Positions 9,322-41,157 are shown, counted from the first letter of the stretch. The stretch: 64,000 bases of DNA from Neptuniibacter sp. PT8_73 (GCF_047778045.1 NZ_CP180545.1:1649480-1713479); one strand, 5' to 3'. The notes: generated by a model from the letters alone, not told the origin. Program-made: numbers and translations.

Positions 9322-9801
9322 ATGAAAAAGTTAATTATTGGTTTTGTTTCCGCTGTTTTATGTATGCCTGTTTTCGCAGCAGACCCGTATTGGGAAGAGG
9401 GTAAAACTGATCAAAGCTATGAGATCGATGTCTACCATAGCCCGACCTGCGGTTGCTGTAAGGAATGGATCACCCATCTCGAGCAACACAATTTCAACGT
9501 GAATAGTATTGAGATGCATGATGTATCGCCAATCAAGCAGCGTTTAGGTGTTCCAGCTCAAGGTGCATCTTGTCATACTGGTGTTGTAAATGGCTTGGTG
9601 GTTGAAGGTCATGTACCGGCGCAAGATATTAAAAAGTTATTGGCTGATAATGCCGATAATATCCGTTTATTAACTGTACCAGGCATGCCATCAGGTGGCC
9701 CAGGTATGGATATGGAAGGCGCTCGAAAAGACGATTTTAAAGTCTATGCTGTATCAGATAAAAACGAAGTCAGCGTTTATTCGGAATATGCGGATTACTA
9801 A
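9322..9801 (+). CDS. DUF411/CopG-like periplasmic metal-binding protein
   Basis: 159 aa. Signal peptide, 'CGCC' motif characteristic of CopG/DUF411. Confidence 0.55.
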   Translation: MKKLIIGFVSAVLCMPVFAADPYWEEGKTDQSYEIDVYHSPTCGCCKEWITHLEQHNFNVNSIEMHDVSPIKQRLGVPAQGASCHTGVVNGLVVEGHVPAQDIKKLLADNADNIRLLTVPGMPSGGPGMDMEGARKDDFKVYAVSDKNEVSVYSEYADY

Positions 9802-9823
9802 ATCCAGTATTAAATATAAAAAA

Positions 9824-9849
9824 GGCGAACTATTGGGTTCGCCTTTTTT
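9824..9849. terminator. bidirectional rho-independent terminator between convergent DUF411 and yceI
   Basis: ggcgaac-tattgg-gttcgcc hairpin flanked by an A-run on the 5' side and a T-run on the 3' side. Confidence 0.6.
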
Positions 9850-9868
9850 GTTTTAGATGAAATCGAAA

Positions 9869-10444
9869 TTACTTCCGAATACCTTCAATATGAAGTTCTA
9901 GGTATACAGTTTCAGCTGCAGGGCCTAGCTGGTAGTTCATGCCAAAATCTTTAGGTTGGATCTCTGTGGTACCTTCGAAGCCTGCACGGTAGCCGCCCCA
10001 AGGGTCTTTGCCTTCACCTACTTTTTTCACGTCGATAGAGATCTCTTTGCTTGTTCCGTAAAGAGTCAGCATGCCTTTCATTACGCCACTGCCATCTTCA
10101 TTTGGTGTGTATGAAGAGCTAACAAAAGACGCTTTAGGGTGTTTGGCTACGTCTAGGTACTCATCACCACGGATATGCTTATCACGCTCAGCGTGGTTAG
10201 AGTCAAACGAGTTAACATCAATATCAACATTTACTTTAGATGCCGCTGGGTTAGCAGCATCGTAGCTGAATTCACCCGAGAATGTGTTGAAACGGCCAGT
10301 TAACCAGCTGGTGCCCAAATGGCTGATGCGGAATTGAATAGATGCGTGCGCACCTTTTGTATCAATAACGTAATCCGCAGCATAAAGAGGGGACGTAGTG
10401 ATTAGAGAGGCTAGCGCCAACCCTTTAATAAATTTAGATTTCAT
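9869..10444 (-). CDS. yceI: YceI-family periplasmic polyisoprenoid-binding protein
   Basis: Signal peptide, YceI-like fold sequence. ATG at 10442-10444 overlaps the TGA of the upstream cytochrome b561 gene by 1 nt. The track start at 10447 is a TTG one codon earlier. Confidence 0.75.
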   Translation of the reverse strand: MKSKFIKGLALASLITTSPLYAADYVIDTKGAHASIQFRISHLGTSWLTGRFNTFSGEFSYDAANPAASKVNVDIDVNSFDSNHAERDKHIRGDEYLDVAKHPKASFVSSSYTPNEDGSGVMKGMLTLYGTSKEISIDVKKVGEGKDPWGGYRAGFEGTTEIQPKDFGMNYQLGPAAETVYLELHIEGIRK

Positions 10445-11010
10445 CAATGTTCCTCGCGTAGCGCTAGCATGCGCTTTAGTGTTGTGTCTTTATCTATGTA
10501 ATGGTGCTTTATTGCAGCGAATGCATGTAATGCTGCTAGCACGATAAGTGTTGTTGCTATCAAAAAGTGAATCTCACCTGCAATATCCTCCTGCTGTTCC
10601 ATTGCGAAGGGTAGTGCTGGAATACTAAACCAAGTAAAAACTTCTATTGCTCGACCGTCAGCGGTAGAAATCAGGTAGCCAGAGCACAAGGTAAGTAGAA
10701 GTAAAACTTCGAGCAATACATGTGTGGCTTTTGCTGCAATTGCCATCTTCTTTGGTTGTGGCAGTGCCTTTGGCGAGCGGTTGAATAAACGCCACAATAT
10801 GCGTGTAATCAATAAGCCTGCTAGCAGGATGCCGATACTTTTATGCCAGATTGGCACTGTCCGGTATTCGGGATCGTAATAACTCAAGCTTTCTATATAT
10901 AAACCGAGGGGATAAAGGCCAATAACCGATAATGCAATGAACCAATGAAGTAGGACTGGGCCCCAGCCATAGCTGTCATTATCATTCAAAATTTTGCGGT
11001 TAAGTGGCAT
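10444..11010 (-). CDS. cytochrome b561 family protein
   Basis: 188 aa, four transmembrane helices with conserved His residues. Operon with yceI as in E. coli yceJ-yceI. Confidence 0.7.
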   Translation of the reverse strand: MPLNRKILNDNDSYGWGPVLLHWFIALSVIGLYPLGLYIESLSYYDPEYRTVPIWHKSIGILLAGLLITRILWRLFNRSPKALPQPKKMAIAAKATHVLLEVLLLLTLCSGYLISTADGRAIEVFTWFSIPALPFAMEQQEDIAGEIHFLIATTLIVLAALHAFAAIKHHYIDKDTTLKRMLALREEH

Positions 11011-11183
11011 CTACTTTTGTCCTCAAATTATCTTAGCTATGCAATCACAAATAACATTGTGCTGCAGTCAAGTTTACGAATCTTTACAAGTTGTAAGCGT
11101 CATCTTTTGGATTTGCTTTTCAAACTTTAATGGCTAATCATAAATGCGTCTAATGCATATTTTATATTTCGGTTATTCGTTTA

Positions 11184-12101
11184 ATGAATTTACGCTCGGT
11201 CGATCTAAATCTCCTCGTTGTGCTACAAGCGTTGTTAGCTGAGCGACATGTTTCTAAAGCTGCTGAGCGTTTGCAGATGAGCCAACCTGCTGTGAGCAGA
11301 GCGTTACAGCGATTACGTCAAACGCTTGATGATCCTCTCCTCGTTAGAACTGGAAATGGCTATGACCTTAGTGCGCGTGCTGTTGATCTGGAAAAGCAGT
11401 TAAAGCCTTTATTACAAGATGTTGCTTCGATTATGCAGCCTGAAGAGTTCAATCCAGAGCTGGCTGAGGGTGTGGTTAAGCTAACAGGCTTGGATTTAGA
11501 GTTAATCCTATTGATGCCAGATGTTGTAAGGATGCTGCGCGAAAAGGCACCGAAATTACGGGTAGAGATTGTTTCTCAACGACCAGAGCATTTCGAATAT
11601 CTTGCAAAAGGTGAAGTGCATTTTACGATCACGGGGCTATCCCCTGATTCTGGCCAGGATCAATTCAGGCGCTTTCCGATAGCGCGCACAGGTCATGTTT
11701 GTGTGATGGATCAAACTAACCCTTTAGCGAGTCAAAGCTCCATCAGTTTGAATGATTATGCGCAGGCTTCCCATGGGCTTGTTTCCATTACAGGTAAGGG
11801 GCCTGGAATGATGGATATCGAATTAGAAAAATTCGGTTTGAATCGGAGGGTGATGCTGAGGCTCGCAAGTTTTATGTCGGTTGCTGAGTTTGGCCAGGGT
11901 TCTGATCTGATTTTTACTCTACCAGAAGTAATGGCCCAGCATTTGGTAAAAAGCAGCAGCTTAGTAATTAAGCCGCTGCCTGAAGAATTTGACCTACCTG
12001 AGGTGGTGCTCTACCTCTATTGGCATGAGCGCTTCCATCAAGATCCAATGTGTCGCTGGGTGAGATCTCAGCTGTTATCAATTTTTCAGCCAGATCTATA
12101 A
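11184..12101 (+). CDS. LysR-family transcriptional regulator
   Basis: N-terminal HTH 'VSKAAERLQMSQPAVSRALQRLRQ' followed by a LysR substrate-binding domain. Confidence 0.75.
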   Translation: MNLRSVDLNLLVVLQALLAERHVSKAAERLQMSQPAVSRALQRLRQTLDDPLLVRTGNGYDLSARAVDLEKQLKPLLQDVASIMQPEEFNPELAEGVVKLTGLDLELILLMPDVVRMLREKAPKLRVEIVSQRPEHFEYLAKGEVHFTITGLSPDSGQDQFRRFPIARTGHVCVMDQTNPLASQSSISLNDYAQASHGLVSITGKGPGMMDIELEKFGLNRRVMLRLASFMSVAEFGQGSDLIFTLPEVMAQHLVKSSSLVIKPLPEEFDLPEVVLYLYWHERFHQDPMCRWVRSQLLSIFQPDL

Positions 12102-13328
12102 ATGAGAGCCTGACATCAGCTGCATGGTCTCATTACTCCAACTCAAGGCGTCATAATAAGCATCGGCATACACTTCTTGAATATGAGGCGGTAGCTTAAA
12201 GGCAGATTGGCCGATCATGTAAAAGTTAACCGCTTGCAGTAAGCGACCGGCAGGGCCTTCGTAACTAGTGACTGCTTCAACAATCTCATCGGAGACAGAC
12301 AGCTGATCTAGCAGTGATTCTTGATCGATCTCTAGGAGCGCGTCTAGCATTGAGATCACGCCAGTAATAAAAGCGAGTTCGGAATCGATCTCTTCGGTAC
12401 GATAAGCGACGGATTCGCACATTCTTGCTGTAATTAGGATCTGACGGATCAGTTCGCTCGGTTTTTCATCATTGCTAGAGAGGGCAAGCAGGGTGGCCCA
12501 CTTGTTAATCTCGTTCATGCCTAAGGCAATGATCGCCTGACTTAAACTCTCAATCTTATTCGGCAGGTTATATTGCGCAGAATTGACGATACGCAACAGT
12601 TTGAAGGTTAGTTGTGGGTCGCGAGATGAGATATCTGCTAGTACAGCAGGGGTAACATCTTGATCCTGAAGCGCCGCTAATAGGTGAATTACAATGGCCT
12701 GATTGGACGTTAATTTTTTACCTTCGACTAGTGTTGGTCTAGACAGAAATGTACCCTGAAAAAGCCTAAACCCTAAGGCATGGCAGCGCTCATATTCATC
12801 ATGAGTTTCAACGTTCTCGGCGAGAGAAACAACTTTGAAAGGGCGCATGCTTTCCAAGTGAGAAACAATCGCTTCGTCACTATGTTTACGAATGTCGACT
12901 CGAACCATATGTGCGAGTTTAAGCAACTCATCATAGTCGCTATTGTAAGTGAAATCGTCTAAAACTAAGCGGTAGCCAGCATCTACGTATTTTTTCAGTG
13001 AGCCAAGTAATTCAGGCGTGATGTTAGGTTGCTGCTTAACATCCAGAACTAAATTGTGTCGCGATAGACTTGGCAGGCTTTCGGTACGAATAAAGCTTTC
13101 AGTGACATTGAGAAACGCGGGTAAGGATTTTAATGTGCCAGAATCATAGATGCTGGTGAAGTTATTGATTAGGACATTACAGGACTCTTGGTCGCCTTTT
13201 AAAAATTTGGCTACAGCTTCACCATGCTCCGACTGGTACAACAGCTCATAGGCCACGACATTAAGTTCGCGGTCAAAAATTGGTTGTCGGGCAAGTCCTA
13301 GCTGGTTTAAATGTTCTTCCATGTGCAT
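12096..13328 (-). CDS. EAL-domain plus HDOD-domain signalling protein (c-di-GMP related)
   Basis: N-terminal EAL-type domain ('QPIFDRELNVVAYELLYQ', with the EAL motif replaced by ELL) and a C-terminal HDOD domain. The stop overlaps the convergent LysR gene by 6 nt. Confidence 0.7.
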   Translation of the reverse strand: MHMEEHLNQLGLARQPIFDRELNVVAYELLYQSEHGEAVAKFLKGDQESCNVLINNFTSIYDSGTLKSLPAFLNVTESFIRTESLPSLSRHNLVLDVKQQPNITPELLGSLKKYVDAGYRLVLDDFTYNSDYDELLKLAHMVRVDIRKHSDEAIVSHLESMRPFKVVSLAENVETHDEYERCHALGFRLFQGTFLSRPTLVEGKKLTSNQAIVIHLLAALQDQDVTPAVLADISSRDPQLTFKLLRIVNSAQYNLPNKIESLSQAIIALGMNEINKWATLLALSSNDEKPSELIRQILITARMCESVAYRTEEIDSELAFITGVISMLDALLEIDQESLLDQLSVSDEIVEAVTSYEGPAGRLLQAVNFYMIGQSAFKLPPHIQEVYADAYYDALSWSNETMQLMSGSHL

Positions 13329-13591
13329 TTATCCTGTTGTTTATTCATACAACAAATCGTAGATCGTTTAACTCTAACAGCAGAGCCACTATAAAAGCCA
13401 TGGTATTAAGAAACCCTTAACAAATTAATCAGTGGTTTTGTTATCTGGTCGTTTAAGTATAGGTTAGATCGCGATTAACGCTGCTAGGAATGAAGAGAAA
13501 TCTCAGGAGTGCTTTAGAGAGCTTGAAGGTAGAGTTATGGGTCTGAATATGAATTTTATTTCTATAAAAACAGAGAGTTAAATAATTGCAT

Positions 13592-28307: not shown

Positions 28308-30056
28308 TTAAAGCTGGTTAGCTTTACGGTAGCGACCTTGGTAATCAAATATTCTCTCTTGTACACGCCAATAGTGCTTTTGCTCGCGTGCGATGACAAA
28401 GTCTGGCGCGACTAAAAGTGCTTCATAAGCGATCGCTTCTTCTATGTTTGAAAAGTTTTGCGGGGCTTGGCTATTCGCAACCCGTCGCCCAAAGATCTCA
28501 TTAAAGCGTTTTAGCTGAGCCGGCTTGGAAAAATCGAAGCTCTCCTTCAGCTCTTCACCTTCCTCACCATGATAAATAACCTGAATCTTGGACTGATTCC
28601 GGATCAACGATAATCCCGCACATCGGATCACCATGGCATCTTTCAGTTTCAGTGCATCTTTTAATTGATCGTCTGGGTCGATAATCGCTTTATTGCACTG
28701 ATGGCATTTGCGGGCAGCGATATCATTTTCAGCATTACAGTGAGGACATTCTTTAAATCGAAAGCGAAAATCACACTGTTCTGATGGGGTATCGCTATCG
28801 TCGCTTTCAAGCAGACCTTTACAGCGTCGACCATGATGTTCAATTACCTTGCCATCGCTGTCAGTTTTGCCCCAAAAGATATTGGCAAAGCCGCAGGAAG
28901 GGCAAAATACTTGTACCGGTTCGGAATCTGGGGAAGGGCGTTTTTCACCCACTTCTGGATGGTGCAAATTATAGTTGTTGCCTGCGTAGTCGATGACTAA
29001 GCAATCTTTCTTTCCAGGCGCGAGTCTAAGACCGCGCCCAACAATCTGCTGATACAGACTAACAGATTCGGTGGGCCTTAAAATTGCTATAAGATCGACA
29101 TGGGGTGCATCAAACCCTGTAGTAAGAACTGATACGTTAACCAGATACTTAATTTTCTTAAGCTTGAAGTCACTGATCAAGCGGTCTCTATCTTCGCTGG
29201 TGGAAGAACCAGTGATCAAAGCTGTTTGGTCCTCGGGAAGGTAAGTGCTGATCTCTTTGGCGTGATCGACTGTTGCTGCAAATATCATCACGCCTTGGCG
29301 ATCTTGAGCTCGTTCGATTACTTGTTCAATGATCGCCCTAGTGACGCGCTTGTATTTTGTGAGCAGGTTATTGATATCTTTTTCAGTATAAGTGCCAAAT
29401 GCAGTTTGATCTAAGGCTGAAAAGTCATATTGCGCGACCGCGGCATCTTCCATTTCTGGGGGCGTTAAGTAGTTACGGCTAATCATGTAACTGAGCGGGA
29501 GTTCGTAGATGCAGTTACGAAATGGTTTTTCCTGCTCGCTTCTAACAAAACCACGATAATGCTGCTGATAGATCCAGCCCATACTCATTCTATAAGGCGT
29601 TGCAGTTAACCCAAGTACTTTGAGGTTGGGATTTATCTCTTGGAGTTTGTCAATGATCCGGCCATATTGGCTATCTTCGTCGTCATTAATACGATGACAT
29701 TCATCGACGATCAGTAAGGAATATTCGTTATTAAAAAGATCAATATTCGCCGCGACAGATTGCACACTGGCGAACGTAACCTGTTTTTCGATCTCTTTGC
29801 GACTCAGGCCCGCTGCAAAGATGCCGCCTTCTAAACCATAGCTTTCATATTTAGCGTGATTTTGCTCAACTAACTCTTTGACATGAGCTAGCACCATAAT
29901 TTTTTTACGTGCTAAGCGAGCAAGCTCTGCTATGACAAGACTTTTTCCGGCACCCGTTGGTAGCACGATGACAGCAGGATCATCAGTTTTGCGAAAGTGC
30001 TGTAATGTCGCATCAACGGCTTCTTGCTGATAGGGACGTAGGGTAAACGCACTCAT
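28308..30056 (-). CDS. radD: SF2 DNA repair helicase RadD (YejH-like)
   Basis: Walker A 'LPTGAGKS', DEAH-like 'VDECH', helicase motifs, C-terminal Cys4 zinc ribbon ('CPSCG...CPHC...CHQC'). Confidence 0.7.
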
Positions 30057-30304
30057 ATAGGGTTCAGATCCAATAGAAACAGCTAAAACAGAGTGATTCT
30101 AACCTATGAAAGTTCGAAGTCCCATTCAATGGTGATTCTTGATGTTTCTAATGATTAGGCAATTAGTATTTGAGAATGAATACTATTTATTTAGTTAAGC
30201 GTATTGATCATTCATAAAAACAAACATACACTCGATTAAAAGCAGTTTATGACAAAGGAAAGCACAAGGTTTAGTGCGTTAGTCATAATAGATAGGACTC
30301 ATTT

Positions 30305-30922
30305 ATGGAATTTCTCTTAGGGTTTTTCTCATTCCCACTGGCCGTTACGGCAATCCCTTTTCTATTTTTATTTTCCCTTATGCTGATCTCAGTATTGACG
30401 GGTTTTGTTGATGATATCCCATTTCTTAGCACTGAAACTGATTTGGAGATTGAGGTTGATGCGGAAGTGCCTGGGGGTACTTTATTGCCTGTTGGAATCA
30501 CCAAGGTTCCACTGATTATTAGCCTAACCACTGTTAGTTTCGTCGCTACAATACTGGTTTATTACATCGATACTTTCATACTGAGTGATATGAGCGGCGC
30601 GGTTTTTTATGGTGCTGCTTCGGGTTCAATCTTGGCCAGCTTATTTGTCAGCCTCTATATCGCGGCTTTTCTACTAAAGCCCCTGCAGCCATTGTTTGAT
30701 CATGAAAAGAGCTTTGCTGCGATTAACTATGTTGGCATGAACGCTATAGTTCGCTCCAATTCAGTTAACCAGACATTTGGCGAAGCTGTGGTTACAAAGG
30801 GTAGCTTGGAAAACCAGCTGGATATTTATAGTGACAGTGACACCCCAATTTCTTATGGCGATGAAGTGCTCATCGTTTCATTAAATCCTGAAAATCAACG
30901 ATACCTCGTTATCAAAAAATAA
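30305..30922 (+). CDS. NfeD/YqiJ-like membrane protein (flotillin partner)
   Basis: 205 aa. N-terminal transmembrane helices, C-terminal NfeD OB-barrel ('VVTKGSLENQLDIYSD...EVLIVSLNPENQRYLVIKK'). Confidence 0.65.
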   Translation: MEFLLGFFSFPLAVTAIPFLFLFSLMLISVLTGFVDDIPFLSTETDLEIEVDAEVPGGTLLPVGITKVPLIISLTTVSFVATILVYYIDTFILSDMSGAVFYGAASGSILASLFVSLYIAAFLLKPLQPLFDHEKSFAAINYVGMNAIVRSNSVNQTFGEAVVTKGSLENQLDIYSDSDTPISYGDEVLIVSLNPENQRYLVIKK

Positions 30923-30940: not shown

Positions 30941-33061
30941 ATGGACGCAGGAGCTTCTGTATTCTTTGTTTCGACCACGGGCGTTGTCGCGCTTGTCCTT
31001 ATCATGTTTTTAACCTCGCGCTACAAAAAAGTACGCCGTGAAGGTGAAGCAATGATTGTAAACGGTACACGAGGTACGCGTGCCTCTCTAACAGGAACGT
31101 TTGTATGGCCTGTAGTTAACCGCTATGAATATATGGATATTACCCGTAAAAATATCTCAGTGACTCGTAGCGGTAGTAGAGATCAGGAGGGTGAGGAATA
31201 CGAAGGTCTTCACTGCAAAGATAATATCCGAGCTGACCTCAAGGTTGATTTTTATATTGGTGTAAATCACGAAGAGCAGGACATTGTTCGTGTCGCTAAA
31301 CTATTTACGACGCAAGGTGCTTCCGATCCAATGGGTCTTCGAGATCACTTCCAGCCAAAATTCTCTGAAGCGTTGAAAACAGCGGTAAAACAATTTGAGT
31401 TTGAAGAACTGCTAACTAACCGTCGCGCTTTCCGTGATGCTGTGGTGGAGGTGATTGGCAGCGAAATGGATGGTTTTAAAATCTATGACGTTGTAATCGA
31501 TAAAGTGGATCAAACAGCTTTCGATGCCCATAACCCGCAAAATATTTTGGATGTAGAGGGTATTCGTAAGATAGCCTCAATCACTTCTACCAAAAATATC
31601 GAAACCAATGCGATCCGTCAGGATGAGCAAACCAATATCAAACAGAAAAACGTTGAAGCGGAAGCTAACCGTAAACAACTTGATAAGCAGCATGCTGAAA
31701 ACGAAGCCCGCGTACAGCGTGAAATCGAGATCATTGAATCACAGGAACAAGCTCTTACAGAAGAAAAGCGTCAAGAGTATGAGCGTCTTGTTGAGGTCGC
31801 TAAGCTAGAAACTGAAGAAGAAGTTGAGAAAAAACGCGAAACAGTTCAATTGGAAGTAGAACTCACAAAAGTAGCAAATGAACGTCAGCTTGCAATTCAG
31901 CAAGAAGAAGTGAATCGGGCACGTGAAACAGAACGGGTTCGTACCGAGAAAGAGATCTCCCAGCAAGAGATGGAGAAAGAAGCTGCCATCGAAGAATCTA
32001 AGAAGTCTGTAGTTGAAACACGTTCCCAGCGTGTAGAGATCGAACGTAAGATCGCTCGTGAAGAGGAAGAGACCAAGAACCTACGTGCTTTCGAAACAGT
32101 GGAACGTAGCAAGAAAGTCCAAGTAATTGAAGCGGAAGCAGAAGCTGAGGCCGAAGGTATTAAGGCTATTGCCCATGCTCGTGCAGAGAAAGAAGCTGAA
32201 GCGGAACTGGCTGAGAAAAGCCTGATTCGTAATGAGGCCGAACTGAAAATTAAGAACCGTGAAGCTGAGAACGATCTAAATGTTAAAACGCGTAACGCTG
32301 AAGCTGAACTGATTGCACAGACTAAAGCCGCTGAAGCCAAAGAGCGCATGGCGAAAGCAACGCGTGAAGAAATTCAGGTTGAAGGTTTGGCTGAAGTTGA
32401 AGTTGAGCGTCAACGAGCTGATGCGATTCGTGAAAAAGGTATTGCCGAAGCAGAAAGCTTACGTGCGATTGGTACTGCAGAAGCGGAAACTATGCAGGCT
32501 AAAGGTAGCGCGGATGCTGACGCTAAGCAGGCAATTGGTTTTGCTGAGGCTGAAGCACTACAAGCGAAAGGCTTGGCGGAAGCTAAAGCTCAGACTGCTC
32601 GTTTTGAAGCTGCTCAAGCACACGATGAGCAGACCCGTGAATACGATAAGTGGGTTGTTGAACTACAGAAAGATAAAGAGCTCGAACTGGCTCGTATCGA
32701 AGCACAGCGCCACATGTCTGTTGATAATGCTAAGGCATTGGCTTCTGCGCTTGCTGAAGCTGATATCAAACTATTCGGTGGCCAAGGTATGGAAGAACTA
32801 CGCCGTACAGTAATGGATTCTGCGCGAATCGATACGCGCTTTACCAACTCCGAAGTTCTTAACCCATTGGTACGTGAGTACGTTGAAAATGACCGCAGTT
32901 TGCCTGATGACGTCCGTGCGATTCTTGAAAAGTGCAATGTAAATACTGGCGATATGAGCAATATCGCGCTGGCTGGCTTGGCTAACAAGCTAACTAGCAA
33001 TTCCGATGTACTTTCATCACTTAAAGAATTGGTTACTGGTACTGATAAATCAGAATCTTAA
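30941..33061 (+). CDS. SPFH/band-7 flotillin-like protein (YqiK-like) with long Ala/Glu-rich coiled coil
   Basis: N-terminal transmembrane segment, SPFH domain, then about 350 aa of EA-rich heptads (AEAEAEAEGIKAIAHARAEKEAEAELAEK...). ATG 30941 with GGAG RBS. The track's 30929 is a TTG. Confidence 0.8.
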   Translation: MDAGASVFFVSTTGVVALVLIMFLTSRYKKVRREGEAMIVNGTRGTRASLTGTFVWPVVNRYEYMDITRKNISVTRSGSRDQEGEEYEGLHCKDNIRADLKVDFYIGVNHEEQDIVRVAKLFTTQGASDPMGLRDHFQPKFSEALKTAVKQFEFEELLTNRRAFRDAVVEVIGSEMDGFKIYDVVIDKVDQTAFDAHNPQNILDVEGIRKIASITSTKNIETNAIRQDEQTNIKQKNVEAEANRKQLDKQHAENEARVQREIEIIESQEQALTEEKRQEYERLVEVAKLETEEEVEKKRETVQLEVELTKVANERQLAIQQEEVNRARETERVRTEKEISQQEMEKEAAIEESKKSVVETRSQRVEIERKIAREEEETKNLRAFETVERSKKVQVIEAEAEAEAEGIKAIAHARAEKEAEAELAEKSLIRNEAELKIKNREAENDLNVKTRNAEAELIAQTKAAEAKERMAKATREEIQVEGLAEVEVERQRADAIREKGIAEAESLRAIGTAEAETMQAKGSADADAKQAIGFAEAEALQAKGLAEAKAQTARFEAAQAHDEQTREYDKWVVELQKDKELELARIEAQRHMSVDNAKALASALAEADIKLFGGQGMEELRRTVMDSARIDTRFTNSEVLNPLVREYVENDRSLPDDVRAILEKCNVNTGDMSNIALAGLANKLTSNSDVLSSLKELVTGTDKSES

Positions 33062-33087: not shown

Positions 33088-33120
33088 AGCCTCCTTATCA
33101 CCTGGGAGGCTTTGTTCTTT
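33088..33120 (+). terminator. hairpin plus T-tract between flotillin and the giant ATPase gene (possible attenuator or partial terminator)
   Basis: agcctcc-ttatcacctg-ggaggct followed by ttgttcttt. Confidence 0.4.
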
Positions 33121-33149: not shown

Positions 33150-36100
33150 ATGGATCAGAATCAGGACGTTTTGAACCAGGCCGTTGAATCGGGCGGTGCT
33201 TATGAAATCTTAAAAGCGCGCTTAGCCAGCCAAGGGGCTGAACTAAAAGGGTTAGTTGATCAATTAAATAAGGCTCGTCAGGAGGCATTTGGTGCGTCCA
33301 GTACTGAGTTGGTTGGCAAGGTTAATGTTCATACCCAAAATAACTGTCTTCCTGTCGATATGGCACAGGTCAACGATCAGTTACTCTTTGGCTATCAAGT
33401 ATTTGTTGGGCTTAAAGCAGCGCCTGAAGTCAAAGATGTTCTAGGCCTATATCGTCTATCAGAAACTGATAATCAGTTTCGGATTGATAGTGAGCCTTTA
33501 GCAGATTCTTTTCTTGATGATCCTCGCTTTGTTCATTCTTTTAACGAACTTTTTCGTTACTACAGTGACGCTAAACTGGTTCAAATTAGCCGCAGGGATT
33601 TCTGGCTATGTGTCGTTTTCCAAATTGGTAGTCGCCCAGAAGATCGTAAGGTTTATCGTTGGCAGCTTAAAGATAGTGGTGCGATCGAATATATAGACGA
33701 TCAAGGCCATAAAGAGCTGGATGGAGTCGGCAATCAGCTTGATGTTGATTGGCGTGAAACCGGGCGTAAGAATCATATAACCGGTGATTACCCTCATGTA
33801 TCGATTAATGATCGTATCTTTGTTGAGTGTGTTGGCGGTGATCTGACTGTAAAGCTTGAGAACAATACTCAAGAAGGGCGAGGGATCTATTCTGAGCCTG
33901 TCGAAGATCCTCATCAAACCGTTGCTGATGCAGAGATAAGTTACGCAGAAGTATCTAGTTTTATTCTGCTACGTATCAGACCAAACCGTGAGAAAGATTA
34001 CCGATATTTTGTTTACGACAGCCTGACTGAAAAGGTGCAACGGGTCGACTCCCTAGGCCAATGCTGTAAGTTACTACCTGAGGATCACGGTCTGTTATTT
34101 GCCAATGGTTACGCTTTGGCGAATGGAGAATTAAAACTCTTCCAAGATGATTGGAGTGGGATGCAATTCTTCCATGATATTCACGCCCCTAATGGTGAAG
34201 ATGCGTTTTACATTTTCTTCGATCCACAACACGGCGCTTACCTACAATATCAATATAACCTGATAGAAAAGACGGTATCTCCACCTGTATATAGTCATGG
34301 TTACAGTTTATATCCTGACGGACGCATGCTGGTTTTCCGTGTCAGTGATAATGCTGAAGCCAGTAAAACCCACCCTATGCGTATTTGGCAGACGCCTTTC
34401 ATGAGTGCCGATCTTTATGAAGCATCGCGACAAGAGGGTGGTGAAGGTTTTTATCGCAATTTAGGGAATGCCGAGTTAGTGAAAGGTATTTCTGAATTGA
34501 ATTCGGTCATTCAAATGACCAAAACGACAGAAATTAGTCAAACGCTTTATGAAGCTTTGGTAACTCACTGTGATGCAGCAGTCGATCAATATCATTGGTT
34601 AACGGATACAGAAACTCAGGGTGTTGACCAAAAACTATCTGAATTAGCGACAACGGCTGAACAGATCATTGATGAGTTCGCTAAAGTCCGAACTCTGCAG
34701 AAACAAGCGAAACAACAAACCGAAGAGCAAGCTCAGAAGCAGCATGATCTGCTAGGTAGAATTAAGTTAGTTCCGTCAGATAGCACAACAGATCTAATTG
34801 AATTGTTAGACGAGACTAAATCGCAGCTTGGCCACGTAATTAGCCTGCGTGAAATGCGTTATGTTAACGCTAGCCAGCTCGATGAAATGGAAGCTGCGTT
34901 AGATGAAGCTCGAAGTGGCTTGAACGCTAAATTACTAGAGCTTTTACAACAAGAGAAAGCTTACCAACCTTATCTAAAGCGCATCGATGCATTGGATTTG
35001 GCGCTTCCAGAAACAGAGAAAACAGCTGCGCTAGACCATTTGGCTGAAGATGCCGGCAAGATCCGTAGAGATCTAAATCTGGTCAATCAAGAAGTTTCAG
35101 ATATTGAAACTGATGATCCTACTAGCACGACAAAAATCCTCGATCTAACAACTGAGGTGATGGCGCGGTTAAACGCTACCGAAGCGCGTTTACGTAATCG
35201 TCGTTCTGAATTAAGAGATGGCGAAGCTAAAGCTGAATTTGCATCACAGCTTAAGCTCCTTACTCAGGCGATGACATCTGCTCTCGGTCAAGTTGATACA
35301 CCGGAAGCCTGTGATGATCAGCTTGCGCGCTTAATGGGGATCGTAGATAAGCTTGAAAGTCGATTTGCTGAATTCGATCAGTACCTAGCTGAGATCTACA
35401 ACAGACGGGACGAAGTTCAAGCAGCCTTTGAAGCGCAGAAGCAGCAGCTTTTATCTGCTCGACAAAAGCGAGTTGAAAATATTAGCCAAGCAGCTCAAAT
35501 CACGCTGAAAAGTATCGAAAAGCGTGTAGGAAAATTCGCTGAGCTTGACGACCTGAATAGCTATTTTGCAGCAGATGCGATGGTGCAGAAGTATCGCCAA
35601 TTGTGTAAAAACGTTCAGGAGCTTGGAGATAGCGTCAAAGCTGATGAATTAAGTGGCCGTATCAAAGCGCTGCAGGACCAATCTCTACGTTCACTCCGAG
35701 ATAATCAAGATATCTTTGAGCAGGGCGGCGATATTTTACGACTTGGCCGACACAAATTTAGCGTCAATCAACAGCCCTTAGAGCTTACCTTAGTCGATCG
35801 AGATGATGGTCTTAATTTACACCTAACGGGGACTGATTTTTACCAATCGGTTGTTGATGATGAGTTTCTGCGTTTACGTAAATACGCCGCGATGGATGTT
35901 AGCTCGGAAAGTAATGAAGTCTACCGAGCGGAGTATCTGGCTTATCTTATTTTAACATCGGCAGAATCAAAGCAATCTGGCTTGTCACTTGATCTCTTAG
36001 TTAAAGCCGCAAGTGAAAATGAACTGCAGCCTTTAGTTGATAAGTTTGCAGCTCCTCGTTATCGAGAGGGCTATGTAAAAGGTGTACATGACAAAGATGC

Positions 36101-38063
36101 AGGGACATTACTCAAGGCTATTATGCCGGTGTACGCCGATGCTGGTTTATTAAGGTTTAGTCAGAAAATACGTACAACGGGTTTGCTGTTTATCGCAGGG
36201 CTAGATAACAGTGCAGCTGATGCACTTAAGAAACAATGCCGTTCAGCTTTGCTAATGCAAAAAGAGTTGGGTTCAGATAGTGCATTTGATGTGCTGTTAG
36301 ACAATTACCAAACTCAAGTTTGTGAATGTCCAATACTAGCGAAACAAGCGCTTGAATATTTGATGTATCAGTTTGGCTTAGATCAGCAGGTCTCTGTTAG
36401 CCGTGATGCAGCCGAACTTGCAGAAAATTACTTAGCATTTAGGCATGGATTAGATTGGCGTAAAAACCAAGAAAGTCTGGCAGAACAATATCAGGATCAC
36501 TTGCTTTGGGTTGAAGCCTACTGTGAACATCATAAACAAGGTATAGAGTTCGTCACAGAGGCCGCTTTAATTGCAGCCTTATCTGACAGTAGCATCCATC
36601 TAACCCCTGTCGATTTCTCTTTGAGTATCAAGGTAAACGGCTTGTTAGGTGAGCACCTTCGTGTTGATGAGGGCAAGTGGAGCGAGACTATCAATGATTG
36701 GTTAGATCGCTGCCGTCACCACATTGAAACGGTCGTACCTGCGTACGAAAAATACCTTTCTCAACGTCAAGAGATGTTAGAAAAGCAAAGAGAGACGATG
36801 CGCATACAAGAGTTTGTCGCTAGGCCGCTAACCTCTTTTGTGCGTAATAAGTTGATCAGTGAATCCTATCTAAAATTGATGGGCGATAACTTTGCTAAGC
36901 AGATGGGTACAACCGGCGATGATCGTCGAACTGACCAGATGGGGATGTTACTGCTTATATCTCCTCCGGGTTACGGTAAAACGACCTTGATCGAATATAT
37001 CGCAGGTAAGTTGGGCTTGGTATTTATGAAGATCAATTGCCCCTCTTTAGGCCATGATGTTGTATCGCTTGATCCAAATGATGCGCCAAACGCGACCGCT
37101 GCTAATGAAGTTAATAAAATTAACCTCGCACTAGAAATGGGTAACAACGTGATGCTGTATCTTGATGATATTCAGCATACCAATCCTGAATTTTTGCAGA
37201 AATTTATCTCCCTAAGTGACGGTACTCGCCGCATTGACGGTGTTTGGAATGGTGTCACTAAAACTTACGACATGCGTGGTCGAAAGTTCTCCATCGTTAT
37301 GGCGGGTAACCCTTATACAGAATCAGGGGATGTGTTCAAAATACCAGACATGCTAGCTAACCGAGCAGATATTTATAACCTCGGTGATATGCTCTCTGAT
37401 CAGCGTGATGCATTCGAGCTTTCATATATTGAAAACTCTTTAACCTCTAACAGAGTGTTGGCTCCGCTGGCAAATAGAAATCTACAAGACCTCTACAAAC
37501 TCGTAGATATGGCACGTGGGCAAAATATCCCGCTTTCTGATTTAGAGCATAGTTACTCTTCAGCAGAAGCCTCCGAAATTGTAGCTGTGCTAGAGAAGAT
37601 GATTAAGGTTCAGCAAGTTGTGCTCGCTGTAAACCAGCAATATATCGCTTCAGCTGCAACCGCTGAACAGTACCGTACAGAACCCCCTTTCAAGCTTCAG
37701 GGTAGTTACCGAAATATGAACAAGCTTGCTGAAAAGGTGGTGTCGGTCATGACCGATGATGAGCTGGAGACGCTTATCAATGATCACTACATTGGTGAGG
37801 CGCAAACCCTAACCCATGGCGCTGAAGAAAACCTGCTTAAATTGGCTGAACTGAGAGGCGCTTTAGATGACGAGTCTGAAGAGCGTTGGGAAACCATTAA
37901 GCAGCGCTTTACTCGATCCTTAGAGGCGGGTGAGGGAGAAGATGCCGGCGATCGAATGGTCAACCAGATGGTTGATGTGAATAGGAACATTCGCCTGATC
38001 GCTTGGGCAATGATGCGTGCAACTAAGGAAATTGAAGCCGCAGAGGAGCTGGAGGAAATATGA
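33150..38063 (+). CDS. giant (1637 aa) coiled-coil protein with C-terminal MoxR/AAA_5-type AAA+ ATPase domain
   Basis: Beta-rich N-terminal 450 aa, about 450 aa of coiled coil, a helical region, then an AAA+ domain: Walker A 'ISPPGYGKTT' (DNA 36969-36986), Walker B 'VMLYLDD', sensor-1 'MAGNP'. ATG 33150 with GGGAAAG RBS. Confidence 0.6.
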   Translation: MDQNQDVLNQAVESGGAYEILKARLASQGAELKGLVDQLNKARQEAFGASSTELVGKVNVHTQNNCLPVDMAQVNDQLLFGYQVFVGLKAAPEVKDVLGLYRLSETDNQFRIDSEPLADSFLDDPRFVHSFNELFRYYSDAKLVQISRRDFWLCVVFQIGSRPEDRKVYRWQLKDSGAIEYIDDQGHKELDGVGNQLDVDWRETGRKNHITGDYPHVSINDRIFVECVGGDLTVKLENNTQEGRGIYSEPVEDPHQTVADAEISYAEVSSFILLRIRPNREKDYRYFVYDSLTEKVQRVDSLGQCCKLLPEDHGLLFANGYALANGELKLFQDDWSGMQFFHDIHAPNGEDAFYIFFDPQHGAYLQYQYNLIEKTVSPPVYSHGYSLYPDGRMLVFRVSDNAEASKTHPMRIWQTPFMSADLYEASRQEGGEGFYRNLGNAELVKGISELNSVIQMTKTTEISQTLYEALVTHCDAAVDQYHWLTDTETQGVDQKLSELATTAEQIIDEFAKVRTLQKQAKQQTEEQAQKQHDLLGRIKLVPSDSTTDLIELLDETKSQLGHVISLREMRYVNASQLDEMEAALDEARSGLNAKLLELLQQEKAYQPYLKRIDALDLALPETEKTAALDHLAEDAGKIRRDLNLVNQEVSDIETDDPTSTTKILDLTTEVMARLNATEARLRNRRSELRDGEAKAEFASQLKLLTQAMTSALGQVDTPEACDDQLARLMGIVDKLESRFAEFDQYLAEIYNRRDEVQAAFEAQKQQLLSARQKRVENISQAAQITLKSIEKRVGKFAELDDLNSYFAADAMVQKYRQLCKNVQELGDSVKADELSGRIKALQDQSLRSLRDNQDIFEQGGDILRLGRHKFSVNQQPLELTLVDRDDGLNLHLTGTDFYQSVVDDEFLRLRKYAAMDVSSESNEVYRAEYLAYLILTSAESKQSGLSLDLLVKAASENELQPLVDKFAAPRYREGYVKGVHDKDAGTLLKAIMPVYADAGLLRFSQKIRTTGLLFIAGLDNSAADALKKQCRSALLMQKELGSDSAFDVLLDNYQTQVCECPILAKQALEYLMYQFGLDQQVSVSRDAAELAENYLAFRHGLDWRKNQESLAEQYQDHLLWVEAYCEHHKQGIEFVTEAALIAALSDSSIHLTPVDFSLSIKVNGLLGEHLRVDEGKWSETINDWLDRCRHHIETVVPAYEKYLSQRQEMLEKQRETMRIQEFVARPLTSFVRNKLISESYLKLMGDNFAKQMGTTGDDRRTDQMGMLLLISPPGYGKTTLIEYIAGKLGLVFMKINCPSLGHDVVSLDPNDAPNATAANEVNKINLALEMGNNVMLYLDDIQHTNPEFLQKFISLSDGTRRIDGVWNGVTKTYDMRGRKFSIVMAGNPYTESGDVFKIPDMLANRADIYNLGDMLSDQRDAFELSYIENSLTSNRVLAPLANRNLQDLYKLVDMARGQNIPLSDLEHSYSSAEASEIVAVLEKMIKVQQVVLAVNQQYIASAATAEQYRTEPPFKLQGSYRNMNKLAEKVVSVMTDDELETLINDHYIGEAQTLTHGAEENLLKLAELRGALDDESEERWETIKQRFTRSLEAGEGEDAGDRMVNQMVDVNRNIRLIAWAMMRATKEIEAAEELEEI

Positions 38064-38776
38064 TTACTCAAATGGATATTGAGAAAATGTTGGTCGAGAG
38101 CTTTGAGGATCAACGTCTCTCCTCAGACGAAAGAGTGGAGCTTCGAGAGTTGATTGAGCAACTCGCAGCTCAACCTGAACTGCAATCTTTCGCGCGTAAT
38201 AAAGCTTTTTCAATTGCCAAGAATTCTGCTGAAAATGGCTTGATTGAGATCGCTTCTCTGAATTGGTTGGACAAGGTTGTTAAGACATTAGACAACACGG
38301 GTAAATCAGCGCCTATCAGAACTCAGTCAGCTTTTTCGCCGGGAGAAGATTGTAGATCTCTGATTCAACAGGAGATAAAACGTAGTCAGAAATCTATAGA
38401 TATCTGCGTTTTTACAATCACCGATCAGCCGCTACGCGACGCTATTCTAGCCGCACATAATCGAGGAATTAAGGTTCGTATCCTCACAGATCAGGATAAA
38501 GCGAACGATTTAGGTAGCGATATCGACTATCTAATGCATAAAGGAGTTGATGTGCTTTTGGATACGAGCCCATGGCACATGCATCATAAATTTGCTCTGT
38601 TTGACGGGGTGAGATTATTGAATGGAAGTTTTAATTGGACACGCTCAGCAAGTGATCGTAATCAAGAGAACCTTACGCTGACGGATAATCAAGAAATCGT
38701 ATCGGCATTTGCCGCTGAATTTGAAGCATTATGGACTCGCCACAGCAGTGTGCGGGTGGAGAGGGAGCCAGCATGA
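38060..38776 (+). CDS. phospholipase D superfamily single-HKD protein (Nuc-like)
   Basis: HKD motif 'HMHHKFALFDG...LNGSFNWT' near the C-terminus. ATG overlaps the TGA of the ATPase gene (ATGA at 38060-38063). GGAGG RBS. Confidence 0.7.
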   Translation: MITQMDIEKMLVESFEDQRLSSDERVELRELIEQLAAQPELQSFARNKAFSIAKNSAENGLIEIASLNWLDKVVKTLDNTGKSAPIRTQSAFSPGEDCRSLIQQEIKRSQKSIDICVFTITDQPLRDAILAAHNRGIKVRILTDQDKANDLGSDIDYLMHKGVDVLLDTSPWHMHHKFALFDGVRLLNGSFNWTRSASDRNQENLTLTDNQEIVSAFAAEFEALWTRHSSVRVEREPA

Positions 38777-39846
38777 CACAGGAAATAAGCACTCAAATCG
38801 AGAAGTTTGAACCGAGTCAAATGACTGAAGAGCAGCAGCAACGTGCGGTTGCCATTTCGCAGGATTATGACCCGTTGGACTCTATGGCGACAATCACCTT
38901 TGGTAAAGAGGCGATGGAAAGCATCACTGCTTTTTCAGATCAGGTGTTGGAGCAAGTCCGTACTAAAGATACTGGGGAAGCGGGGGATATCCTAGAAGCG
39001 ATGGTGACTCAGATGAAGAGCTCGCGCTTTGAAGATATTAAACCTGATTCCTTCCTCTCGCGTTTGCCTCTTATCGGTGAGCTTTTCCAAACATTTGGTA
39101 AGTTTGTAAAAGGATTTGATTCGGTTAAAGGCCGTTTAGATGAATTAGAGCAAAAATTAAATGCCCAAGGTCATCGTCTAGAGAAAGATATTGTCCAGTT
39201 AGATGGTTTGTATGATGAAAACTTAAACTTGCTGCAACAATTAGATATCTACTTAGAAGCGGGTCAAATCACGCTTGATCGCCTGAATAACGAGCAGATT
39301 CCTGAGCTAAGTAAGTTGGCTGAGTCCAGTGGTGATCCAGTAGATAGTCAAAAATTACGAGATCTACAGCAAGCGACAGGTCGCCTAGAAAAACGCCTAC
39401 ATAATTTAAAACAAGCGCGTTTAGCTGCGCTGCAAACTGCACCTCAAATCCGTTTGTCTCAAGAGGGTAACAAAATGTTAATGGAAGATATCCAAGATAT
39501 CATCCATAACACTATCCCTCTATGGAAGCGCCAGTTCCTTATTGCGATCTCTAACTATGAGAAAGAAAAAGCGCTTAAGGTGACACGTACGGTTAAGGAT
39601 TACACTAACCAGCAGTACCTACAAAATGCTCAAAAGCTACAAAGCCTAGAAGAGCAGATAGCGGAAAACTACCAGCGTGGTATTTTGGATCTGGATACCT
39701 TAAAAGAGGTGAACCAAATCACTATCGATACGCTAAACAATACGCTTAAGCACTACGAAGAAGGTCGTCGTATGCGTCAAGAAGCTGAGAAGGCTATTAC
39801 TCAAGCTGAGGAAGAGCTAAAACAAGCTCTGATGCAGACAGTATAA
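38773..39846 (+). CDS. TelA/KlaA-like toxic-anion-resistance family protein
   Basis: 357 aa helical protein whose N-terminal region resembles TelA ('DPLDSMATITFGKEAMESI...'). ATG 38773 overlaps the PLD TGA (ATGA). RBS GAGGGAG. Confidence 0.55.
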   Translation: MTQEISTQIEKFEPSQMTEEQQQRAVAISQDYDPLDSMATITFGKEAMESITAFSDQVLEQVRTKDTGEAGDILEAMVTQMKSSRFEDIKPDSFLSRLPLIGELFQTFGKFVKGFDSVKGRLDELEQKLNAQGHRLEKDIVQLDGLYDENLNLLQQLDIYLEAGQITLDRLNNEQIPELSKLAESSGDPVDSQKLRDLQQATGRLEKRLHNLKQARLAALQTAPQIRLSQEGNKMLMEDIQDIIHNTIPLWKRQFLIAISNYEKEKALKVTRTVKDYTNQQYLQNAQKLQSLEEQIAENYQRGILDLDTLKEVNQITIDTLNNTLKHYEEGRRMRQEAEKAITQAEEELKQALMQTV

Positions 39847-39916
39847 AAAGATTAAACATCTTGTTATTTGATAAAGGTTAATGTCGTTCATTAGCCTTTT
39901 TTATTTTTAAGCGTAT

Positions 39917-39972: not shown

Positions 39973-41157
39973 TTAATCGTCTGCGTCGTCCTGATCAAAC
40001 CGGGTCATAAGGTCACGCAAAAGACCGAAGTTATCATCCAGTTTGCTCTGGGATTCTTCATCAGCATCTTTGTAGCGGATATCTTGATGAATCAAGCTGT
40101 CCAATAGATCTACCCCGAATAATGAACTGTCTTCTAGGAACGCCATGGCTGGGTTAGCAACCAAGTTATCGAAGTTGTTCATCATCTGGCCTAAGTGACG
40201 GCCATTATTGCCTAATGGGTTGTCTAGTTGTTGAACTTGCTCATAAGCAGCTACCGCTGAGTAACTTGCTGATTGAGTCATAGTTACATTCAAGTTCATC
40301 AACTCGGATTTGTCCATTTCAAATTCAGCTGCTTGTTCAAAAGCGTCTTGAACATCACCGCTGAAGAAGTCTTCGGCAATAAGGTTGATATCCTGAATTA
40401 GGGTTGTCAGCGCGTCTAACTCGTCTTCGTTAAGATCGCCTTCAACGCTAAAGCTATAGCTACTGCTGGCGCTACGTTCAAGGCCGAAAGATACAGCGCT
40501 ACTGTTACCATCAGAGTAAGCGCCTAAAGAGGCTGTTTGACTTGCCTCGCTGTTGAAACGTATTGAAACTTTGTCCCCTTCCTGTGTCATGACATCAAGG
40601 GAGAAAGACTCAGCTTTTGAGTAACGTTCAGCAGCAGAGATAGAAGTCTGGCGTGTGGACGCTGTTTCGTTGGTAGGCGCAAGGCCGGCCAGCGCTTCGA
40701 ACGTCAGATCTTTGGTTTGCTCGATTGTCGCGGAGATATCAGGGGTTAGCATGTTGAGATCTTCTAGAATCTCAGTTGCTTCTTTAAAGCCTTTTTCTAC
40801 GCCTGAAACGGCCGCTTTATACATACGGTCTAGGTCGGCATCAGACGCACCGCGGGCACGGGCTTGTTCAAGACCTTGTGCTACAAAATCAGAGATACGT
40901 GATGCAACTTTTTCCGGAGAGTAGTCATTTGCGTCGAGACTTTTCATCTCTGACACGCTCATGCCCGGAATGTTTTCTGCTAGTTTGGCTACTAACTTAT
41001 CTGCCGCAGATGCAGAACGACCGTTGCTATCTTTACCATCAGCAAACCCGCCCGTAACCAGTGTTTCCTGGCGAACCTGAGAGTAGGCTGCTTGGCTGCT
41101 TAATAGAACTTGCACGGTGTTTTCCTCCACAGACAAAAAAGGATCAAATGATCCCAT
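39973..41157 (-). CDS. highly acidic cytoplasmic hypothetical protein
   Basis: 394 aa, Asp/Glu-rich with a C-terminal 'DQDDADD'. No transmembrane segment or signal peptide. No recognisable motif. Confidence 0.4.
   Translation of the reverse strand: MGSFDPFLSVEENTVQVLLSSQAAYSQVRQETLVTGGFADGKDSNGRSASAADKLVAKLAENIPGMSVSEMKSLDANDYSPEKVASRISDFVAQGLEQARARGASDADLDRMYKAAVSGVEKGFKEATEILEDLNMLTPDISATIEQTKDLTFEALAGLAPTNETASTRQTSISAAERYSKAESFSLDVMTQEGDKVSIRFNSEASQTASLGAYSDGNSSAVSFGLERSASSSYSFSVEGDLNEDELDALTTLIQDINLIAEDFFSGDVQDAFEQAAEFEMDKSELMNLNVTMTQSASYSAVAAYEQVQQLDNPLGNNGRHLGQMMNNFDNLVANPAMAFLEDSSLFGVDLLDSLIHQDIRYKDADEESQSKLDDNFGLLRDLMTRFDQDDADD

Follow-up and report, generated by a model that had tools for sequence, protein, structure and literature searches.

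A probably active, MitoPLD/Zucchini-like single-HKD protein as an optional member of a flotillin/YqiJ/AAA+ operon in Neptuniibacter

Proteins of the phospholipase D (PLD) superfamily that carry one HKD motif include both enzymes of nucleic acid metabolism and enzymes whose activity has been argued over for years, and one such protein is encoded in a stretch of 64,000 nucleotides from Neptuniibacter sp. PT8_73 (GCF_047778045.1, NZ_CP180545.1:1649480-1713479), referred to here as the window. This protein, called the PLD below, is very probably a BacF-type, MitoPLD/Zucchini-like enzyme that is apparently catalytically intact and that belongs to a module built from a flotillin-like protein, a YqiJ-like protein, and an AAA+ ATPase. 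Between nucleic acid and lipid as its substrate, a membrane-proximal endonuclease of single-stranded nucleic acid, comparable to Zucchini on the surface of mitochondria, is the tentatively preferred and weakly held reading.

Catalytic motif and closest relatives

The open reading frame (ORF) of the PLD begins with ATG and extends from 38060 to 38776 on the + strand, encoding 238 amino acids, and these are precisely the coordinates and length proposed in a sequence-only reading of the same DNA. That reading had described a single canonical motif, and the regular expression HxK(x)4D(x)6G[ST]xN does match the protein once, at residues 175-192 (H175 to N192, DNA 38582-38635, + strand), where the sequence is HHKFALFDGVRLLNGSFN; the longer string that had been quoted, HMHHKF...GSFNWT, occupies residues 173-194 (DNA 38576-38641), in agreement with the approximate 38576-38640 given for it. 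The Pfam domain PLDc_2 (PF13091) covers residues 103-225 with E=1.4e-31, its score of 109.5 bits exceeding the cut-off of 27. Across 31 aligned homologues of 43-81% identity, H175, K177, D182, G189, S190, and N192 of the HxK(x)4D(x)6GSxN motif are invariant, as is E203, presumably the counterpart of the His-orienting Glu122 of Nuc, and because all of these residues are invariant the pattern is that of an active enzyme. The misplaced Lys or Asp that had been named as the mark of a degenerate, non-catalytic fold is not seen, as every motif residue is present and the AlphaFold2 model of the protein (mean predicted local distance difference test score, pLDDT, 88.9) has a Nuc/Zucchini-type fold.

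The nearest proteins are from Neptuniibacter, at 97% identity, and a neighbor-joining tree of PLDs, star-like at depth and without support values, groups the operon-linked members by taxon. When sequences of known structure are searched, human PLD6 comes first (3e-26), followed by mouse MitoPLD/PLD6 (4.5e-23), then fly Zucchini, Nuc (6e-13), and NucT (8.5e-8). A profile of the family gives 141 bits to PLD6 (3.7e-40), 76 bits to Nuc, and 55 bits to NucT, which makes PLD6 the top match in the PDB by about 65 bits over Nuc in a one-way search from the bacterial side. The alignment to residues 41-175 of human PLD6 is gapless, with 50 of 135 positions identical (37%), and the core HMHHKF...GS.NWT is common to both. 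Foldseek places the model close to mouse Zucchini (4ggj; template modeling score 0.80, root-mean-square deviation 2.1 Å), Nuc (1byr; 0.83), and NucT (6ehi; 0.81), with lower matches to the pseudo-enzyme FAM83 (FAM83B), the exonucleases PLD3 and PLD4, and phosphatidylserine synthase. The PLDc_2 match, the PLD6 match, and the fold matches mark out a MitoPLD/Zucchini-like catalytic single-HKD domain at residues 88-238 (38321-38776, + strand). One HKD motif per chain on a core of about 150 amino acids with a Nuc-type fold, the trait of the small single-HKD clade (Nuc, NucT, Zucchini, and BfiI), is found in this domain. The earlier description of the protein as Nuc/BfiI-like was therefore right about the class but needs adjustment within it, since the PLD is nearer to MitoPLD/Zucchini than to Nuc (141 against 76 bits) and BfiI is absent among the matches listed.

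MitoPLD, PLD6, and Zucchini are enzymes of the membrane surface, a likeness to a PLD encoded within a membrane module. Unlike them, the Neptuniibacter protein is bacterial and predicted to be cytoplasmic, and it has different partners. It has no N-terminal transmembrane anchor of the kind found in PLD6, a soluble acidic four-helix domain standing in its place, and it lacks the insertion of fly Zucchini, so that the alignment to 4h4a splits in two. Five residues that lie near the catalytic motif in sequence, D122, K147, D150, D154, and R195, are invariant in the family and have no equivalents in PLD6. With Nuc (pKM101) and NucT (Helicobacter pylori), the PLD shares a common fold, the catalytic motif, and the size of the catalytic core, yet it matches them far more weakly in sequence than it matches PLD6, and they have neither its N-terminal domain nor its operon context. 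The NCBIfam equivalog for NucT scores 29-53 against cut-offs of 211-351, and the NCBIfam scores for DrmC and DpdK are 35.2 against 133 and 31.6 against 100; as these values fall far under the curated cut-offs, the PLD is placed outside the NucT, DrmC, and DpdK families.

A family-specific N-terminal domain

Four helices, at residues 4-15, 22-35, 39-55, and 64-81, precede the PLD fold in the AlphaFold2 model built on the alignment, with helix pLDDT values of 84-95, and together they form an N-terminal domain of residues 1-87 (38060-38320, + strand) that is recognized from both model and alignment. Its residues L11, D17, E24, R46, N47, F50, W69, and L70 are invariant among the 31 homologues, those of Pseudomonas included. 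No Pfam family reaches threshold on this domain, and a phmmer search with it against 1.84 billion representative sequences returned 26 weak matches, all of them the N-termini of proteins of 253 amino acids or fewer. The conserved four-helix domain is confined to the BacF-type PLD family.

The domain is acidic, with an isoelectric point (pI) of about 4.8-5.1, and 13 of the first 30 residues of the protein are charged. Across the whole protein the highest Kyte-Doolittle mean over 19 residues is 0.91, and the PLD therefore has no transmembrane segment or signal peptide. The first 100 or so residues had been described as charged, helical, and free of a signal peptide, and all three traits are borne out, although the helical part ends at about residues 85-90. 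A cytoplasmic location, as had also been suggested, is accordingly what the lack of any hydrophobic segment predicts.

A flotillin/YqiJ/AAA+ operon and its published counterparts

The PLD is the fourth gene of a five-gene operon on the + strand. The first gene (30305-30922) encodes a YqiJ/YuaF-like multi-transmembrane protein of 205 amino acids, recognized by its hydrophobic N-terminus and by synteny, without a Pfam match; its Hymenobacter counterpart is annotated DUF1449. The second (30941-33061, + strand) encodes a flotillin-like protein of 706 amino acids with a transmembrane segment, an SPFH/band-7 domain, and a coiled coil. Its start is placed at ATG 30941, the listed ORF beginning at TTG 30929, and the resulting length matches the calls in Neptuniibacter homologues. 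The presence of flotillin and TelA genes beside the PLD, already remarked on from the sequence, is upheld for both: the flotillin-like protein has no match in Pfam but weakly resembles flotillin-1 in the PDB (E=5e-4) and has homologues annotated as SPFH or flotillin family, and the fifth gene (38773-39846, + strand) encodes a TelA-family protein of 357 amino acids (Pfam TelA, 2.2e-78) whose start is backed by homologues of 357 amino acids at 100% identity. The third gene (33150-38063, + strand) encodes a 1637-residue protein with DUF3686 (1.1e-163), DUF7902 (2.2e-16), and a C-terminal AAA+ ATPase domain (Pfam AAA, 7.7e-8) at about residues 1265-1350 of the listed ORF. Its Walker A motif, SPPGYGKTT, and a DDIQH sequence that replaces the usual DE of Walker B are kept from Proteobacteria to Deinococcus, Bacteroidota, and Actinomycetota. 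Sequence search found no relative of this ATPase in the PDB, no support was found for the Pfam name "ATPase involved in DNA repair", and a literature search returned no papers on DUF3686. The PLD is joined to its neighbors by ATGA overlaps on both sides, between the ATPase stop and the PLD start (38060-38063) and between the PLD stop and the TelA start (38773-38776).

When one genome per GTDB species was scanned, at least 591 loci with PLD relatives came to light; the closest 80 of these were analyzed and were classified by tblastn with the window proteins and their Pseudomonas counterparts, partners being detected by tblastn only. Counts of gene context rest on the 66 loci with at least 7 kb of sequence upstream of the PLD gene, and the 10-kb flank used omits some CesT and PspA genes. 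A flotillin-like gene is present in 55 of these 66 loci, the same number in which YqiJ-like, flotillin-like, ATPase, and PLD genes follow one another in this order on the same strand; in 54, a YqiJ-like gene comes before the flotillin-like one. In Vibrionaceae, Pseudomonas, and Lysobacteraceae, the PLD-bearing operon is chromosomal and vertically conserved. A version headed by DUF2170 (CesT-like) and PspA genes occurs in Pseudomonas, Lysobacteraceae, and Cellvibrio.

Operons of this kind have been described before. In Pseudomonas aeruginosa, PA3732-PA3729 were tied to biofilm formation and virulence in 2008, and a 2024 study showed by reverse transcription PCR that bacA-bacF form one six-gene operon, for which a sigma-54 promoter was proposed; in a bacA mutant, BacB-D, PA14_16190 (BacE), and PA14_16200 (BacF) were up 6- to 13-fold (PMC10948618). 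PA3728-PA3732 are induced in phage-infected P. aeruginosa (PMC12041424). A survey by Ravi et al. in 2024 described operons that combine CesT/Tir-PspA with band-7/flotillin, AAA+, and YqiJ/YuaF components, the last being a three-transmembrane protein, with an optional PLD (HKD) hydrolase "in some Proteobacteria", and found abbreviated operons without PspA to be more widespread (PMC11237479).

The order in Pseudomonas paraeruginosa (locus L054) is DUF2170, PspA, a 213-residue protein, a 688-residue protein, a 1746-residue protein, and a 235-residue PLD, and it is from this order, not from a PAO1 or PA14 record, that BacF (PA3727/PA14_16200) is taken to be the PLD. Gene order makes BacF, which closes the P. 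aeruginosa bacABCDEF operon, the orthologue of the window PLD. The P. paraeruginosa copy of BacF type is 47% identical to it over residues 7-238, and the window PLD, like BacF, comes directly after a DUF3686 ATPase (BacE) that itself follows the flotillin-like BacD and the YqiJ-like BacC. The two operons differ at their ends, as the bac operon has a CesT-PspA head whereas the window operon has a divergent RadD gene upstream and a TelA gene after the PLD; tblastn finds neither BacA (CesT/DUF2170) nor BacB (PspA) in the 64-kb window. They also differ in that no counterpart of the sigma-54 promoter proposed for bac was found upstream of the window operon: 30057-30304 holds no TGGCAC-N5-TTGCW site at up to two mismatches, and sigma-54-like matches across the window are at chance expectation. 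The core components are the same as those of the surveyed operons, in which the PLD is likewise optional (PMC11237479), and the PLD operon is a variant of a published, uncharacterized operon type.

The PLD as an accessory to a more widespread core

A tblastn search of a plasmid collection with the ATPase returned 13 records, including Pseudomonas pQBR103 and records from Deinococcus, Hymenobacter, Streptomyces, Nonomuraea, Halomonas, and Proteus. In the eight of these loci that were examined, all from other lineages, the ATPase is accompanied every time by a flotillin-like gene, and a YqiJ-like gene was detected in six; none of the eight has a PLD of the BacF-type family within 7 kb. The PLD is therefore an accessory, an optional add-on to a three-gene core that occurs there without it and whose distribution is far wider. 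It follows that the substrate of the PLD decides only what the optional enzyme adds and not the core system, so that the view that this substrate "decides the whole system's function" has to be given up. The idea that another lipase or nuclease takes the place of the PLD in such operons was also considered and rejected, as the position of the PLD next to the ATPase is vacant in each of the six loci for which the sequence downstream was inspected; such a vacancy is silent on substrate.

On the Pseudomonas fluorescens megaplasmid pQBR103 (L084, 85407-104329), a PspA-rhomboid-polyamine module with DUF2491, DUF350, DUF1190, and glutathionylspermidine synthase-like genes is followed by the YqiJ-SPFH-ATPase core, again without a PLD. 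Its presence on this large plasmid makes the module a mobile one. The rhomboid gene of pQBR103 (L084 472-1026) adjoins PspA. Elsewhere a rhomboid protease gene lies between the ATPase and PLD genes in 28 loci (for example, L012 9419-9973), and in locus L051 a rhomboid gene (6926-7504) is paired with a PLD in the absence of the ATPase. The rhomboid protease looks like another optional accessory of the module.

The PLD gene also occurs apart from the module, in 11 of the 66 loci. Neighbors of these orphan PLD genes include an HDOD protein, a beta-propeller protein, a LuxR-type regulator with a kinase, and a PDC-S37/Hhe helicase, and no partner is common to them among the neighbors examined.

Nucleic acid, lipid, or another substrate

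Whether the PLD is a nuclease or a phospholipase, as had been asked from the sequence, is a fair question, and MitoPLD/Zucchini carries the same published controversy (PMC3708527). The lean toward a nuclease comes from the fold class of the protein and from the recurrence of an adjacent superfamily 1 (SF1) helicase gene. Nuc, NucT, Zucchini, and BfiI are small single-HKD endonucleases with nucleic acid substrates, and an elongated, positively charged substrate groove is a criterion of these nucleases, whereas lipid-acting PLDs have a deep hydrophobic pocket beneath flexible loops (PMC5714352). Biochemical work on purified Zucchini favors a nuclease over a phospholipase (PMC3708527).

An SF1 helicase gene (AAA_11/AAA_12, 900-930 amino acids) directly follows the PLD gene in about nine Pseudomonas/Ectopseudomonas loci and in Motilimonas. 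In locus L012 the PLD ORF ends at the very position where the helicase ORF starts (10675; helicase 10675-13386), and this helicase is 37% identical over 923 amino acids to that of Motilimonas (L013, 11049-13853). A C-terminal match to REase_MTES_1575 is weak and under the curated cut-off in the Motilimonas protein, and none was detected in that of L012. In Pleionea (L027), the MTES_1575 match is strong, within a DUF4011-SF1-MTES_1575 protein (5326-9549, PADLOC PDC-S37/Hhe) encoded immediately upstream of the PLD. The L012 helicase, the only one scanned, has the helicase region of Mokosh MkoC as its top PADLOC match (4.8e-43). A PLD beside an Upf1-like helicase is taken here to recall both Mokosh and the Zucchini-Armitage pair. 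The likeness to Mokosh extends to the PLD domain itself, through weak matches to MkoC (5.6e-8) and MkoB (6.2e-8) of about 29-30 bits, and to the helicase gene right after the PLD in L012 and L013. Unlike Mokosh, however, these relatives have the order PLD then helicase, inside a Psp/flotillin operon, and the window locus has no helicase and lies outside any defense island.

The PLD would form a homodimer that assembles one active site from two HKD motifs, as Nuc and Zucchini do, and it would cleave phosphodiesters without metal by way of a phosphohistidine on H175. The N-terminal domain may dock the enzyme on, or gate it at, an assembly of the ATPase, flotillin, and TelA proteins on the inner face of the cytoplasmic membrane, where the PLD would act locally once phage infection, membrane damage, or the like induces the envelope-stress module.

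Several points weigh against a nuclease. The common partners are all membrane proteins (YqiJ, flotillin, PspA or TelA, and rhomboid in 28 loci), which by guilt by association would imply a lipid substrate. The catalytic domain has a net charge of -5 (pI 5.6) and the family a median of -3, whereas the aligned stretch of PLD6 comes to 0; by this sequence proxy, itself not decisive, so mildly acidic a domain would be unexpected in a generic nucleic acid binder. Among the known bacterial single-HKD nucleases, Nuc is exported, with a signal peptide or a periplasmic location. NucT is exported as well (signal peptide or periplasmic; PMC5714352), whereas the PLD is cytoplasmic by prediction and has no signal peptide. 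An unregulated, non-specific nuclease in the cytoplasm would be toxic, yet BacF is six-fold up in a viable bacA mutant (PMC10948618). No SF1 helicase homologue was found within the 64-kb window, the locus census covers the closest 80 loci of the scan, and the literature searched contains no substrate assay of any BacF-type PLD and no report of BacF biochemistry.

A phospholipid substrate is a serious, though somewhat doubtful, alternative to the endonuclease. The PLD would then be a hydrolase of the inner leaflet that converts cardiolipin, phosphatidylglycerol (PG), or phosphatidylethanolamine to phosphatidic acid (PA) within cardiolipin/PG-rich domains organized by flotillin, and the PA would alter local curvature and charge in a way that aids membrane repair or remodeling mediated by PspA or TelA. 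Such an enzyme would be a bacterial counterpart of the MitoPLD activity reported in mitochondrial fusion, where MitoPLD was reported to turn cardiolipin into PA (Choi 2006 and Huang 2011, as cited in PMC3708527). Membrane-associated partner genes in 55 of 66 loci and the acidity of the catalytic domain speak for it, as does a proposed recruitment of the flotillin component to membrane rich in cardiolipin, where it would interface with PspA (PMC11237479). The TelA homologue of locus L092, whose gene overlaps that of a PAP2-type lipid phosphatase with lipid-synthesis genes adjoining, points in the same direction. On the other side stand the nuclease type of the top structural matches, the Zucchini biochemistry, the SF1 helicase-nuclease gene adjacent in three lineages, and the acidic N-terminal domain, which is an unlikely direct binder of anionic membrane. 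The two activities need not exclude each other, since PLD3 and PLD4 are described as both exonucleases and synthases of the lipid bis(monoacylglycero)phosphate, so that dual activity has a precedent.

It is unlikely that the PLD is a phosphodiesterase for some other substrate, such as a lipid- or nucleotide-linked envelope precursor, polyphosphate, a signaling nucleotide, or a protein-phosphodiester adduct arising from envelope stress. The PLD superfamily does span many phosphoryl-transfer chemistries (PMC5714352), the five family-own invariant residues are without PLD6 counterparts, and about one in six loci (11/66) has no conserved partner. There is, however, no positive evidence for any particular alternative of this kind, and 37% gapless identity to PLD6 suggests a similar class of substrate.

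Less likely still is a toxic DNase effector in a dedicated anti-phage system, with the ATPase as sensor or activator and flotillin and TelA as accessories. A defense context had been raised for the PLD from sequence, and it finds some echo in weak PADLOC/NCBIfam similarity to DrmC, DpdK, MkoB, and MkoC, in the induction of the P. aeruginosa operon upon phage infection (PMC12041424), and in the Mokosh-like helicase after the PLD of some relatives. The assignment was nevertheless rejected, as the scores are sub-threshold and the PLD matches are weak and generic, and as PADLOC matches nothing among the partner genes of the operon. The flanks are housekeeping genes, with synteny in three Neptuniibacter genomes, the core system occurs without the PLD across phyla, and vertical conservation on the chromosome in three groups argues against it as well. 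The PLD locus is a housekeeping envelope-stress module and not a defense island. A non-catalytic scaffold is almost certainly not what the protein is, even though Pfam SACK1 scores 32.5 bits across the whole protein, with no separate matched stretch, and FAM83B is among the fold matches, for FAM83 proteins lack the HKD catalytic residues and all seven catalytic positions from H175 to E203 are invariant here.

Surroundings of the operon in the window

A terminator-like hairpin found by consensus scan, with an 8-bp stem that includes five GC pairs, lies at 33088-33111 (+ strand) within the 85 nt that separate the flotillin-like gene from the ATPase gene, where it could attenuate the distal ATPase, PLD, and TelA genes. 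A second (39873-39899, + strand), also found by consensus scan, follows TelA with an 11-bp stem and then a run of T, and it is the probable end of the operon, the next gene being on the opposite strand. Terminator-like sites in the region are no more numerous than expected from shuffled sequence.

The locus is syntenic in three Neptuniibacter assemblies and is flanked by genes for RadD, a Kef-type K+/H+ antiporter, a GGDEF protein, and topoisomerase I. RadD (YejH), a DNA-repair helicase identified by an NCBIfam equivalog at 950 bits, is encoded divergently upstream of the operon (28308-30056, - strand); this adjacency is probably coincidental, because it is confined to Neptuniibacter and absent from the other 80 loci. 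An acidic DUF5610 protein of 394 amino acids is encoded at 39973-41157 on the - strand, converging on the end of the operon, and its gene is kept in Neptuniibacter strains and is not beside the operon elsewhere.

TelA as a possible alternative to PspA

At least three arrangements bring TelA into the module, some of them lacking the PLD. The order ATPase-PLD-TelA is found in Vibrionaceae, Oceanimonas, Oceanisphaera, and Neptuniibacter (11 loci plus the window), and in a Lysobacteraceae locus (L083) TelA (about 9000-9998) lies between the ATPase and the PLD. In the third arrangement, TelA homologues with 44-45% identity head YqiJ-flotillin-ATPase operons, in the position that CesT-PspA has in Pseudomonas: L096 reads TelA (8001-9101), a 212-residue protein, a 650-residue protein, and the ATPase, and L097 reads TelA, TelA (8001-10418), a 201-residue protein, a Band_7 protein, and the ATPase. 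CesT-PspA was not detected by tblastn in any TelA locus, including the window, L096, L097, and L083. These loci thus differ from the operons of the published survey, in which TelA has no occurrences (PMC11237479). As TelA takes a PspA-type position where PspA is undetected, it may be a functional alternative to PspA.

Structure prediction, applied to the idea that TelA resembles PspA/ESCRT-III in fold, offers little guide. The model is poor (mean pLDDT 63.9), with confidence only in a long helical hairpin at about residues 120-240, and Foldseek returned nothing at E<=0.001, its matches being nonspecific coiled-coil, ClyA-type, and BAR-type folds with template modeling scores of 0.37 or less. 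Distant TelA homologues form the usual XpaC-TelA pair of Firmicutes. In one such region (L092, 9285-11856), genes for an XpaC-like protein (PF10112) and TelA are followed by a PAP2-type lipid phosphatase gene that overlaps the TelA stop, with CDP-alcohol phosphatidyltransferase and monogalactosyldiacylglycerol synthase genes as neighbors, one isolated case of a link between TelA and a lipid head-group enzyme.

Significance

The recurrence of TelA where PspA would otherwise sit opens a way to test the function of the TelA family, which is poorly understood. A broader proposal is that the BacF-type family is the closest prokaryotic relative of MitoPLD/Zucchini and that, together with its optional SF1 helicase-nuclease partner, it preserves an ancient arrangement of membrane platform, PLD endonuclease, and Upf1-like helicase; this reading is improbable. 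If it were true, a machine of flotillin, AAA+ ATPase, and PspA or TelA would sense membrane perturbation, such as that caused by phage or DNA entry, and would set a tethered single-strand nuclease to work there. Such a machine would foreshadow in bacteria the mitochondrial Zucchini-Armitage arrangement and would be a new form of membrane-coupled nucleic acid surveillance.

Whether enzymes of MitoPLD/Zucchini type are lipases, nucleases, or both has been debated since 2006-2012, and the PLD family would provide a soluble and genetically tractable bacterial model of this question, with defined membrane partners. In P. aeruginosa, the flotillin/YqiJ/AAA+/PspA module affects biofilm formation and virulence and is phage-induced, and the activity of the PLD would show what this enzyme adds to a widespread and uncharacterized module.

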